Of a stretch of 64,000 bases of DNA, positions 41,083-46,656 are shown piece by piece. Positions within the stretch are counted from its first letter, which is position 1. Each line of letters opens with the position of its first letter. Under the pieces are notes generated by a model. That model was not told the origin of the DNA, ran no database searches, and worked only from the letters and a program-made list of their open reading frames with translations. The stretch spans positions 1,280,001-1,344,000 of the forward strand of contig CP084167.1 of assembly GCA_021513715.1 (NCBI GenBank), in the 5' to 3' direction. The DNA comes from Candidatus Heimdallarchaeum endolithica. GTDB taxonomy: Archaea; Asgardarchaeota; Heimdallarchaeia; Heimdallarchaeales; Heimdallarchaeaceae. The position numbers and the translations under genes were made by a program.

Positions 41083-41442
41083 TTGGCTAAAATATTCATT
41101 GTAGACGATGATGTTGCAATTCAATACCTTTACAGTGAAGGACTGAAGATTAAAGGACATGAGATTTTAGGTGTAGTTAGCGATGGTGTTTCAGCTTTAG
41201 AGAAACTAGAGAATATGAAAGAGCAACCAGACATCATAATCCTTGATCATAAAATGCCATTAAAAAATGGTGTAGAGACATTAATTGAAATTAGAAAAAA
41301 TAACCTCTGTCCCAACGCAAAAATTCTTTTCATTACAGCTGATGGAACAATAAAAGAAACAGTAGAAAAATTCAAAGTTGAAAAATTCATTCAAAAACCA
41401 TTTAGTATTCTCAGTTTATTATCTGTTATTGATTCCATTTAA
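41083..41442 (+). CDS. Single-domain response regulator
   Basis: IVDDD, ILDHKMP, ITA, KPF. Confidence 0.93.
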   Translation: MAKIFIVDDDVAIQYLYSEGLKIKGHEILGVVSDGVSALEKLENMKEQPDIIILDHKMPLKNGVETLIEIRKNNLCPNAKILFITADGTIKETVEKFKVEKFIQKPFSILSLLSVIDSI

Positions 41443-41450
41443 TTACTTTT

Positions 41451-42320
41451 TTAATTTTCTGGAACATTTCTTCTTACTGAATCACGTATCTTTTGAATGG
41501 CTTTCATCACACTTTTTCTTACATACAAATTGTCATCTTTCATCATATCAAATAAAGGATTTAAAGCTAAAAGATTTTTCATTTCACCTAATGCATCTAC
41601 AGCACATTTTCTGATAAACCAATTTTCATCGATGGAAGCAACAAGCAATAGATCCAAAGCTTTTTCTCCTCCGATCAAAGCTATTGCTTGCGACAAAGAA
41701 ACTTGCAGATCTTTGTTATCTGCACTCATAAATAAATCAAAAAGTGGTTGAATTGCTTTTTCCACTTTCATTTTTCCTAAAGTCTCCGCAACACCTTTCA
41801 CAACTTCACAATCCGCATCATATAAAAATTGTAAAAGCAAGTCCTCATCTACTTTTTCTAGTTCAATTATCTCATCCCATTTAAATCTTGCAATATAAAA
41901 TAAGAGCTCTCCTTCAAGAGTTTCAGGTTTCCAGCCTAAAAAGTCTAATATTAAAGCTGCTTCATTTCTGACTTTTGAACTGTCATCTTTTAACGAAGGT
42001 TCAATAAAAGGTATTGCCTCATAAGCTTCAATTCTTCCTAAAGCTGTTATTGCATATAGTCTTACTTCTTCTGCACTATCATGTAAGGATATAACAAGTG
42101 AATCAATAGCTTTTCTACTACCTATTTTTCCTAACGTTTTTGCTGCTTGAGCTCTTACATCCTCATTTGGGTAAGAGAGGAAAGCTATAACTTCATCAAT
42201 TGCTTGATCTCTTTTTGAATTATCAGCAATAATCCCTAAGGTGTATATTTTCACAGCATCATCTTTTTCATGTAACGAAGCAATTAAAGCGTTAATATCA
42301 TCCTCTCTTATTTCAACCAT
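41451..42320 (-). CDS. HEAT/PBS-lyase repeat protein
   Basis: Repeated VRxxAAxxLGxI motifs. Confidence 0.9.
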   Translation of the reverse strand: MVEIREDDINALIASLHEKDDAVKIYTLGIIADNSKRDQAIDEVIAFLSYPNEDVRAQAAKTLGKIGSRKAIDSLVISLHDSAEEVRLYAITALGRIEAYEAIPFIEPSLKDDSSKVRNEAALILDFLGWKPETLEGELLFYIARFKWDEIIELEKVDEDLLLQFLYDADCEVVKGVAETLGKMKVEKAIQPLFDLFMSADNKDLQVSLSQAIALIGGEKALDLLLVASIDENWFIRKCAVDALGEMKNLLALNPLFDMMKDDNLYVRKSVMKAIQKIRDSVRRNVPEN

Positions 42321-43388: not shown

Positions 43389-44532
43389 ATGTTAATCTTC
43401 TTTTTTTGAATAAAAACCTTATTGAATTGCAAAATTTTTTTATTCTTACTTTTAAATTTATTTTTAGGGAGAGCGTATTCTGCGCAATTTTAGTTGTTGA
43501 AGTATTTGTCCTAAACTTGAAGGAAATGCCTTTTGCTCTTTCATAAATAAGAATAGGAAACTAGAAACAAATCTCCCTAAGAATGAGATTCCTAATCCAA
43601 TAGTTAAAGCTAGTTCTATCCCATAACTTATTTTCAAATAATCGACCAGATAACCAGAAACTAATGAACCAAAAAACAAGAATAATCCTGTTATCATATT
43701 ATATATTCCAAAATATATTCCTCCTTCTCTTTCTGGAGCAATATCTAACAAATAAGCTTGTACACTAGGCATTCCTAAAGTTACTAGAGAAGAGACAATA
43801 AAATGGATAATATATAGTTGCCATACTGAACTAGCAAATATATACAACAATGGAAAAGTTGCCATTATTATTCGGCTAAAGAAAATCATCTTTGTTCTTC
43901 CAACATTATCACTGATTTTTGCCCCAATATTGATAAATAACAAAGTAGTAACAGAAAATAATATGTTTAATATTGCAATCTCTAAAGCACTAGCTTTAAG
44001 TATTATTACTTGCTTTATAGGGAAAAGAGGCCAAGCAAAAGACCAAAAGAAAGAATAGATCATTGAAAAGAAAACAAAGTTGCGGAAAGGTTTATTTTTA
44101 TAGGAAAGACTAAAGCTTTCTTTCAATTTCCTTGAAACAGGTTGGTCTTCTTTTTTAATTTTCTTCAAAGGTTCTTCAATTGCAATAAAAGGTAGGACAC
44201 CTATTGCAGACAATGCTATTCCCAAAACTACTGGAATAAGAATATATTTCTGATAATCTATATCTCCGAAAACTAAAGTTAAAACTATCCCTGTAAAGAA
44301 TGTAGCAATCATGCTACCAAAAGCGTTATACCAAAAAACTCTACTACTTAACTTCGCTCTAACTCTTGGGGGAAACAACTCATTTTGCAACACTCCCCAT
44401 GAGATACTTTTTTACGTAATAAACTAAATTTTTAGTTTGTGGAGTTATCAGACCAATAACAACCTGAAACACATTTGCAAAAATAAAGAATACATACACG
44501 ATATTAGGGAGTGTCACAACTTTTCAGCTATC

Positions 44533-44545
44533 TTTATATATTTAA
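44533..44545. promoter_or_regulatory. TATA-box-like element inside the insertion (readable in both orientations)
   Basis: tttatatatttaa between a short minus-strand ORF and the plus-strand structured region. Confidence 0.45.
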
Positions 44546-44554
44546 TTCTAATTT

Positions 44555-44750
44555 ATCTAGTGTCTTGAGCTAGATGCTTAAAGACGTAGGTTTCACTCCT
44601 ACGACACCCGGTCTTCCCTTTGGGAGTTATGAGTGCCCGGGATAAGGAGATGAACCCCTTAGAGAACTTAATTAAGACTGTGTCTTTCATGTTCTCTTAA
44701 GCCAGTCTTCACAACTTTCGCTAAGTTTGTTGATTGGTTGGGGAGAGTCC
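44555..44750 (+). ncRNA. Candidate structured ncRNA carried by the insertion element
   Basis: GC-elevated; stems cgtagg/cctacg (44585-44603), cccgg/ccggg (44607-44641), agagaac/gttctct (44661-44697) enclosing aagac/gtctt, agccagtc/gattggtt (44700-44739, G-U pairs favour + strand) enclosing aactt/aagtt. Confidence 0.55.
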
Positions 44751-45257
44751 TGAAGAAATTACGTAAAATTTCAACTCATGAAGAGACACCCAAGCTTCCA
44801 AACAAATTCACTAAAGCCACAATTATGATAATTGATATAGGAGACTTAACCCAATATAAGAAAATATATGGTATCCCCCAAGATACTGTGCTTATTACAA
44901 TAAAAGGTATTCTCCTACGGAGTATGTCACTCATTCTACCAAATATGGGATTTAGAAAAGTTAACAACAAATTTGCTATACTTTGCAACCACCCTAGATC
45001 ACTCCCACTTGCATTCATATTTCTTATAGCGATCATTGACACAAATGGTCCCACAAGCCCTTGCGAAACACTTATAGCTATAGAACGAGAGTAAAGAGCA
45101 AGTTTCTCCTTTTGTCCAATTGTCCCATTCTCATCTAAAATTTCATTTTCTTCTTCTGTGATATCTTCGTTGCCAGATAAAGTTCTCTCGTTCATAGTTT
45201 TCTAATAACGAAAAAAAAAACCAATCATAAATATTATTATTGGACTCTAATTATTTT

Positions 45258-46202
45258 TTAGATACTTGTTGAAGATATGAGAGATTTTAATTCTTTATCT
45301 TTTTCTACCTTAGAAAGCCGTTCTAAGGTAAATTTAGCATCCATATTATCTACTTTTTTTAATGCCAAGATTATTTTTTTTCTAAGTGTCTTATTATGTT
45401 CTTTGAATAGATGCTTACTCAGTCCATATAATACCTCTGAGTCATATACCTTCGTCAATAAAGCATCTATTACAAGCGATCTCATTTCATTGGACAAATT
45501 TGATTTAAGTAGTCTAAGAAAAGCATATTCTACATCTTCATTTTCTATGCAAGATGACAATGCATTAATTATCCACATTTTTATTTGTTTTGAGTTCTCT
45601 GCATATATTAAATGCCTTATAAGAGCTGCTTGAATAGTTTTGTCCTGAATATCGCCCTTTAGAGCCCAAACAACCCATTTTCTAACTTCTTTAGAGCTAT
45701 CTGTTAGTTTTTCTAGAATCAACTCTTTAACGTATCTACTTTGTATTTTATCTGCTAAAATAGATACAGCTTTTGCTCTACAAATATGATATGGGTCTTT
45801 TCTTGCTATTTCAACTAAAGTTTGAATAACTTCATCATGATCTATGTATTCTGAAAGTTTATCAATAGAGGAGAGACGATCGCTCTTTTTTCCATCTCTC
45901 GCTCTTTTAAGGATATTGATTAAGAAGAAGGAGTCATAAGCTTCTTTTTTCGTTTTTATTTTTTCTTCAATAATTTGTTTTTCTTGAGTTTCATTATCTA
46001 ATACTAGCTTATCTTGCTCAAAAACAGTTTCAGAGGGCAGGGTAGTACTTTCTTCTTCAGCTCTATTTTCCAAGTCAGCTACTTCTTGAACTGAAAACTG
46101 ATCATCATTAGATTCTTTTTCAGTTGAAAGAATTTTTTTTTCAATTTCACGTACTCTCTTAAAGTATTCTCTATCGAGTTCCTCCCTTGATTTCCAACTC
46201 AT
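45258..46202 (-). CDS. HEAT repeat protein with acidic N-terminus
   Basis: DPYHICRAKAVSIL, DSSKEVRKWVVWAL and further repeats. Confidence 0.8.
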   Translation of the reverse strand: MSWKSREELDREYFKRVREIEKKILSTEKESNDDQFSVQEVADLENRAEEESTTLPSETVFEQDKLVLDNETQEKQIIEEKIKTKKEAYDSFFLINILKRARDGKKSDRLSSIDKLSEYIDHDEVIQTLVEIARKDPYHICRAKAVSILADKIQSRYVKELILEKLTDSSKEVRKWVVWALKGDIQDKTIQAALIRHLIYAENSKQIKMWIINALSSCIENEDVEYAFLRLLKSNLSNEMRSLVIDALLTKVYDSEVLYGLSKHLFKEHNKTLRKKIILALKKVDNMDAKFTLERLSKVEKDKELKSLISSTSI

Positions 46203-46287
46203 ACTTAGTATTTGGTTAAAGTCATTAAAAAATCTATCATTTCATTCTCATTTATTAAGAAATAAAAAAAGTTAATTTCCATATAAA

Positions 46288-46656
46288 TTAATGATTTGTA
46301 AAATTTTGCACATTACAAATTAAATTTATTTGTTCAACAAGTTTTGACATTTTAATAGGTTTTTCAATTATTCCTTTCAACCCTGCATTAAGAAACTCTT
46401 TAGCTTTTGTTGTTGCATAAGCTGTAAAACCAATGATACAAGTATCAGGCTCCATTTCTGAAATTCTTTTAGTTGCCTCAATTCCATCCATTTCTGGCAT
46501 TTTTAAATCCATCAAAACCACTTTAGGTCTATGTTGGATAAATTTAGTTACGCCTTCTAGTCCATCTTTTGCTGTAATAACTTTATATTTATCTTTTAAA
46601 ATCACAGAGAGAATCTCCCTTAAATCTTCATTGTCATCGCAAATTAGAATACTCAT
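46288..46656 (-). CDS. Single-domain response regulator
   Basis: ICDDN, LMDLKMPEMDG, FTA, KP. Confidence 0.93.
   Translation of the reverse strand: MSILICDDNEDLREILSVILKDKYKVITAKDGLEGVTKFIQHRPKVVLMDLKMPEMDGIEATKRISEMEPDTCIIGFTAYATTKAKEFLNAGLKGIIEKPIKMSKLVEQINLICNVQNFTNH

Follow-up and report, generated by a model that had tools for sequence, protein, structure and literature searches.

A transposase-free mobile element with a predicted TnpB omegaRNA in the Asgard archaeon Candidatus Heimdallarchaeum endolithica

An MFS transporter gene in the analysed window, a stretch of 64,000 nucleotides from the Candidatus Heimdallarchaeum endolithica genome, is interrupted by a short element which, judged from its sequence, very probably descends from an Asgard TnpB element as a non-autonomous ('ghost') form, with tnpB lost and both ends, a TATA box and a full omegaRNA kept. 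Translation of the element runs into many stops in all six frames, and its RNA is homologous to the 3' ends of tnpB loci, which upholds the description given in the initial annotation of a transposase-free, RNA-encoding, + strand element that needs to be mobilised in trans. The stand-alone omegaRNA is a kind of locus already known, since trans-acting stand-alone omegaRNAs and Fanzor ghost loci have been published. The host genome (G000) is circular, a single contig of 3.33 Mb, and was compared with that of its same-genus neighbour, the sister species Ca. H. aukensis (G001), and with other genomes of the family Heimdallarchaeaceae. Individual extracted loci are given L numbers.

The insert, its junctions and its copies

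The element spans 377 nt and has AT on both sides, at 44399-44400 and 44778-44779. Excising 379 nt, that is the element and one AT, gives an open MFS frame of ~450 aa, and excising 377 nt does not restore the frame. The orthologous MFS gene of Ca. H. aukensis is uninterrupted, an empty site with exactly 2 nt between the flanks. The splitting of an MFS gene by a 377-bp insert, first proposed from the window itself, is thus borne out by frame restoration and by the empty site. The interrupted gene is surrounded by two HEAT-repeat proteins (window 41083-42320 and 45258-46656), each adjoining a single-domain response regulator. The features are, in window positions:

43464-44400, − strand: MFS transporter gene, interrupted, 3' part (from the reading frame)
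44397-44400, + strand: CCAT, the target motif and predicted TAM (consensus VCAT), whose last two bases are the left AT core
44401-44777, + strand: non-autonomous element with left end, promoter, omegaRNA scaffold and right end, no ORF
44410-44420, + strand: left sub-terminal inverted repeat (IR; T-tract and ACGTAAT), perfect 11 bp, 9 nt in from the end
44533-44540, + strand: archaeal TATA-like box, TTTATATA, 28 nt upstream of the first hairpin of the RNA
44561-44779, + strand: predicted omegaRNA scaffold, ~219 nt (covariance model matches to tnpB 3' ends, E 3e-14)
44562-44585 and 44586-44602, + strand: hairpins of the predicted scaffold
44607-44642, + strand: bulged stem of the predicted scaffold
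44629-44634, + strand: pseudoknot 5' strand AUGAGU, pairing with 44774-44779
44645-44657 with 44740-44751, + strand: closing stem of the predicted scaffold, with a K-turn-like internal loop
44661-44697 and 44702-44737, + strand: arms of the predicted scaffold
44758-44768, + strand: right sub-terminal IR, within the 3' end of the RNA, perfect 11 bp, 9 nt in from the end
44774-44779, + strand: pseudoknot 3' strand ACUCAU, of which 44778-44779 form the right AT core (covariation)
44780-44795, + strand: predicted guide in the host flank, antisense to the MFS gene, its length inferred and its position inferred from TnpB systems
44780-45195, − strand: MFS transporter gene, interrupted, 5' part (empty orthologous site in G001)

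The two perfect 11-bp IRs and the internal TATA box had both been described initially, and both were found again. A BLASTN search with the element, one of the checks suggested at that stage, gave 16 full-length copies in the host genome (86-99.7% identity), which with two divergent 359-bp copies having both ends makes 18. Since all 18 sit in different flanks, the insert is not a product of chance. Several partial copies were found besides these, G001 has eight copies with both ends, and further copies occur in metagenomes.

The left flanks end in CAT in 18/18 copies, and the right flanks start with AT in 18/18, followed by G in 12. A 4-bp CATG target duplication was ruled out because it is absent in 5/18 copies; the constant unit of the junction is therefore the AT core, the only repeat present on both sides of every copy, just as the initial annotation had it. 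From the comparison of copies, the element is mobile, targets CAT(G) and is bordered by AT at each end. Conservation among the copies stops one base past the AT core, and the terminal bases of the ends vary (G, A or C) with the T at position 10 fixed. A palindromic circle junction had also been predicted. This is correct for the focal copy, whose circle junction would read CAACTC-AT-GAGATA, but is not general, as 6/18 copies have A for the outermost base of their left end; for the same reason the supposed 'GAG ends' are not conserved.

Truncated copies with only the last 90-150 nt exist, and several begin at an internal ATG/CATG. Rearranged copies (L201:1779-2000, L198 and L048:193-343) have their junction at the AT within the internal AUGAGU; in L201 the 3' half is inverted with respect to the 5' half, and in L048 it is fused to a left end of another family (family C, below). 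From these rearrangements, the pseudoknot strand AUGAGU may serve as a cryptic recombination end. One copy (L072, G000 925511-925881) lies inside a degenerate IS605 element, in the region of its left end. The tnpB that adjoins it was rejected as a partner and the adjacency read as a nested insertion, because this gene is part of the separate IS605 element with its own ends.

The RNA and its tnpB-linked relatives

The RNA block was said to be elevated in GC, and its value is 45%, compared with 31% for the genome. The + strand folds with −66.8 kcal/mol (z −2.71, 1/200 shuffles as good) and the − strand less well, with −58.7 kcal/mol (z −2.04), in agreement with the strand assigned at the outset. 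A sigma-70 promoter scan was set aside as inapplicable to archaea. A covariance model (CM), R1, was built from the gene-less (MITE) copies alone. It matched the 3' ends of 12 tnpB loci with E 3e-14 to 3e-11, the matches starting in the last tnpB codons, and matched the ends of one resident tnpB family (family A, below) in G000 and G001 more weakly (E 1e-7 to 0.03, ~26-35 bits). The model gave no match to the Thorarchaeota RNA regions, and an Rfam search with the RNA returned no match near threshold, there being no Rfam model for this RNA.

Because MAFFT placed the 5' helices wrongly across lineages, an alignment fitted to the CM was used to assess covariation. In this model-fitted joint alignment, where most changes separate just two lineages, both partners change in 30 of the 56 pairs, and 96% of cells are paired; the covariation exceeds that of all 500 shuffles and of all slid controls. 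Covariance modelling had been put forward as a check on the structure, and the structure does covary. The pseudoknot has compensatory variants, AUAAGU:ACUUAU in L127 and AUGAUU:AAUCAU in 14 family-A ends, and a pseudoknot adjoining the guide is a known feature of TnpB RNAs. The segment at 44631-44649, which had been likened to a motif of IS110 non-coding ends, turned out to be the pseudoknot bulge and adjacent stems of the omegaRNA. In 7/7 divergent copies, conservation is higher in the RNA half than in the left half (0.78-0.94 versus 0.39-0.79). Homology in both sequence and structure to tnpB-linked RNAs identifies the block as a TnpB omegaRNA. Each copy would be likely to transcribe a ~220-nt scaffold together with a guide read from its right flank, the TATA box at 44533-44540 being the predicted driver of transcription.

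Longer relatives with the same ends, which the initial annotation had proposed to look for, proved to be TnpB-only families. The focal left end matched three of these in G000: family A (TnpB ~480 aa, eight intact genes), family B (504 aa, two) and family C (445 aa, three). One family-A TnpB is encoded at G000 1568854-1570314. All three share with the focal element an AT core and a T-tract near position 10; T is found at position 10 in 23/23 half-sites across families, and other positions vary. Families A and B have a rearranged RuvC site, with Gly at the usual Glu and a Glu before the zinc finger, an arrangement known from active TnpB clades (PMC10691335), and family C is canonical. Residues D242, D436 and the shifted E402 show no variation across 18 homologues, and 10 family-A and family-B genes have them intact. 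Family A has VCAT flanks, an ACGT-type IR and a related scaffold, all as in the focal element. The closest tnpB-linked scaffold, the L126 type, has no gene in G000, and the resident family A TnpB is 42-44% identical to this type. No close match to the TnpB or the RNA was found in viral contigs. A related tnpB subgroup (L135-L152) has a long structured region upstream of the gene, with several copies apparently in the same host gene context.

Independent clean deletions of tnpB that retain the promoter were found in the other family genomes G002, G016, G017 and G026, leaving cassettes that run from the left end through the tnpB TATA box and the RNA to the right end. The 28-nt TATA spacing is the same in the independent tnpB-less cassettes L204 and L223 and in the L126 tnpB promoter. 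Gene-less cassettes thus arose repeatedly, with at least three scaffolds. A generic scan for IR pairs gave mostly noise, yet it exposed a second solo omegaRNA family, of ~350 bp, that matches the family-C TnpB and comprises L304 (G000 699976-700325) and five near-identical copies. These elements have TCAT left flanks and a TGAT right junction; their left part is long and may hold an extra RNA.

Mobilisation

No cis transposase was found at the TnpB loci of the family by neighbour clustering and five family-C look-ups, and a tblastn search near 109 TnpB loci, with a Y1 query of unconfirmed frame, gave no serine or Y1 TnpA. The only Y1 gene near TnpB loci was at one distant match (30%). One tyrosine integrase was detected in G000 and none in G001 or G002. 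The element would move by excising as a circle and recombining at its AT core, and we lean slightly towards a serine recombinase acting in trans as the class of enzyme.

A small serine recombinase is present in 20/21 family genomes and 0/179 others, although its co-distribution with the elements is confounded by kinship. Its two paralogues (L022:1201-1950 and L021:1213-1935) are single-copy, syntenic, conserved host genes of the family, sitting in conserved host neighbourhoods and never inside the AT-core, T-tract ends. Fold matches to the recombinase were led by serine integrases and IS607-like TnpA (model pTM 0.46), and from sequence and secondary structure we read its C-terminal part as a recombinase domain. 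The recombinase domain of large serine recombinases (LSRs) reads A-T pairs at positions 9-11 (PMC3783163); the T-tract of the focal ends covers this zone, with T10 invariant. This family-restricted protein is our leading candidate for the mobiliser, tentatively held, and the same tentativeness applies to the genes that we would name in the host, at G000 405351-406097 or, for the paralogue, 316725-317447. Should it prove to mobilise the element, this integrase would be compact and its target just ~4 bp long. Further recombinase paralogues lie in apparently mobile cassettes (L263-L267); as element-borne movers these were rejected, since the cassettes lack the ends described here.

There is an appreciable chance, somewhat below even, that the mobiliser is some other enzyme, either a DDE transposase that has escaped recognition and duplicates 2 bp (AT), or an Asgard Cas1 (aCas1) brought in by a transient element. 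The symmetry of the IRs suits such an enzyme. TnpB homologues in Thorarchaeota and a sister family adjoin a large Cas1-fold protein at 26 loci, and their GTTCACTCA motif resembles the focal right end; Cas1 structures top the fold search of the large protein (prob 0.99 but E 0.03). In PMC10691335, aCas1 is proposed as the transposase of the associated TnpB group. However, aCas1 was not found in 31 family genomes, two of them circular, though copies of the element are 99.7% identical, and the multi-copy DDE families of G000 have other ends and longer duplications. The variation of the terminal bases around a fixed T10 also argues against a transposase of this kind, as do the mismatched cores of two related elements (L143, AT/GT; L225, AC/AT), which later mutation could explain; mismatched cores are allowed in IS607 recombination (10.1101/2023.11.20.567912). 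The Cas1 matches in G000 are strong and to typical Cas1.

Three loci (L260:1-4407, L261:1-4779 and L178:1-2757) encode proteins of >1400 aa, divergent from tnpB, with a Cas1-like N-terminus (invariant E, H and D), a PD-(D/E)XK-like motif and no Pfam match. The Thorarchaeota loci L153, L156, L157 and L159 have a conserved hairpin in the gap between the aCas1-like gene and tnpB, 60-120 nt ahead of the latter. It contains GAGTGAACTC, complementary to the downstream GAGTTCACTC motif, and the pair is possibly a two-part RNA or an end sequence.

Flank bias, retention and comparison with known systems

T is found at −4 in 1/18 left flanks of the focal family, against a background of 34-37%, and in 0/13 sites of families A and B (pooled 1/31, p 3e-5); the right flanks show no mirror bias. 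In family C the left flank is TCAT in 9/10 and the right junction is TGAT (Fisher p 1e-5). The right junction of the focal element reads TCAT and is followed by the guide match, so that a TAM of CAT alone would cut the element itself. The avoidance of TCAT in the flanks predicts a VCAT TAM and TnpB-driven retention, in parallel with the self-discrimination of CboIStron by TGGG versus TCGG (10.1101/2023.11.20.567912). The bias could instead reflect different mobilising enzymes rather than selection by the TAM. None of the guides of the copies has a second match in the genome.

On balance, we favour retention by a TnpB in trans, which would load the RNA and cut the empty site (VCAT plus guide match) after excision, sister-chromosome repair then restoring the element. 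Family A, with its eight intact genes, would be the most likely source because of its matching flanks, IR type and scaffold, and the filled site would be spared by its TCAT junction. A partner may nevertheless be absent or incompatible, since the L126-type gene is missing from G000 and family A is only 42-44% identical to it, with an RNA that scores only ~26-35 bits.

It is rather unlikely, though worth weighing, that the same omegaRNA-derived MITE carries its RNA as a non-functional passenger, kept only since the right end overlaps it and used by no resident TnpB. The missing cognate tnpB type would fit this, as would the truncated copies that keep the last 90-150 nt and the lack of any guide with a second genome match. 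The stronger conservation of the RNA half, the kept TATA spacing, the avoidance of TCAT as in the TnpB-bearing family A, and the repeated origin of gene-less cassettes with at least three scaffolds all point the other way.

Of the published systems, the stand-alone omegaRNAs of OMEGA systems, which work in trans (Altae-Tran 2021, as summarised in PMC10691335), share with the focal element the layout of mobilised, effector-free omegaRNA loci beside effector loci in the same genome. The focal scaffold abuts the right end, its conservation stops at the guide and it has a 3' pseudoknot; the element lacks an effector or transposase gene, is mobile and has its ends in common with effector-bearing elements. 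It differs from those OMEGA loci in its symmetric sub-terminal IRs and AT core in place of IS200/605 hairpins, its high copy number, its Asgard host and an activity that here is predicted. The Ghost Spu-1 elements of SpuFz1, whose omegaRNA is functional (PMC10432273), are likewise IR-flanked, nuclease-less and multi-copy; a conserved CA precedes their left end, and their IRs enclose no transposase. They belong to a eukaryotic Fanzor1 and have a 75-90-nt RNA, 30-nt terminal IRs and a CATA TAM, whereas the focal RNA is 220 nt long, its TATA box is archaeal and the core of the element is AT; the likeness is one of layout and no homology is claimed. The Cas1H-Asgard (aCas1-associated) TnpB group, published in PMC10691335, has homologous TnpBs (30-37% identity) with the shifted RuvC-II Glu and a downstream GTTCACTCA resembling the focal right end, but differs in that aCas1 was not found in the 31 Heimdallarchaeaceae genomes and in that R1 does not match the Thorarchaeota RNA regions.

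In the literature searched, we did not find AT-core, T-tract ends common to two TnpB types and several solo RNAs with no cis transposase. Heimdallarchaeaceae may, speculatively, hold an undescribed group of transposase-free RNA-guided elements with these ends in common, spanning two TnpB types unrelated to each other and three or more families of stand-alone omegaRNA. A mini serine integrase fixed in the chromosome (catalytic and recombinase domain, no zinc domain), having replaced the ancestral aCas1, would mobilise all of them, and the retention of each family would depend on a TAM that rules out its own right junction. The element would be a natural multi-guide TnpB system, with ~18 different guides on one scaffold, in an archaeal group close to eukaryotes, and is reminiscent of the Fanzor ghost loci, here in a prokaryote whose TnpB has the shifted glutamate. 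The predictions are exact for RNA start, guide and TAM (VCAT, against TCAT for family C). It poses the puzzle of recently active elements in two circular genomes without a transposase of their own.

A non-autonomous IS110/IS1111 element with a bridge RNA or seekRNA, the identity first suggested, would share the 11-bp sub-terminal IRs, 2-nt core and structured RNA but is extremely improbable, given that no DEDD recombinase gene (PF01548) was found in circular G000 (control positive in 6/14 genomes), that the IRs are symmetric (9/9) where those of IS1111 lie 7 and 3 bp in (PMC11187229), that the RNA is homologous to tnpB 3' ends, and that the targets share CAT(G)/VCAT(G) only, with no long programmed site. 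The alternative of an IS5-type MITE is also unsupported, as no multi-copy DDE family of G000 has these ends; the four families checked as a source (IS5-like, IS481-like, IS6-like and IS4-like) all have different ends, single-copy DDE genes being covered less than exhaustively.

IS200/IS605 (PATE-like) elements have asymmetric hairpin ends and no repeated core, in contrast to the symmetric IRs and repeated AT seen here, and the resident G000 IS605 has different ends. IS607 elements, compared together with CboIStron and ISXfa1 (10.1101/2023.11.20.567912; 10.1101/2023.08.09.552727), are alike in having the core dinucleotide at both junctions, a scaffold ending in that core (10.1101/2023.11.20.567912), a 3' pseudoknot and a TAM, here predicted, one base off the right junction. 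They differ in core, AT here instead of GG, and the ends here are inverted T-tracts. The best G000 score for IS607 TnpA (NF033518, N-terminal HTH) was 42 bits against a cut-off of 110, with none above the cut-off in G001 and none beside the TnpB loci examined. The IS607 TnpA elements of G002 were rejected as relatives for their GG cores and other ends. Three further loci (L292, L295 and L296) encode a TnpB-like protein of ~650 aa; in L292 a broken IS607 tnpA lies ahead of its gene.
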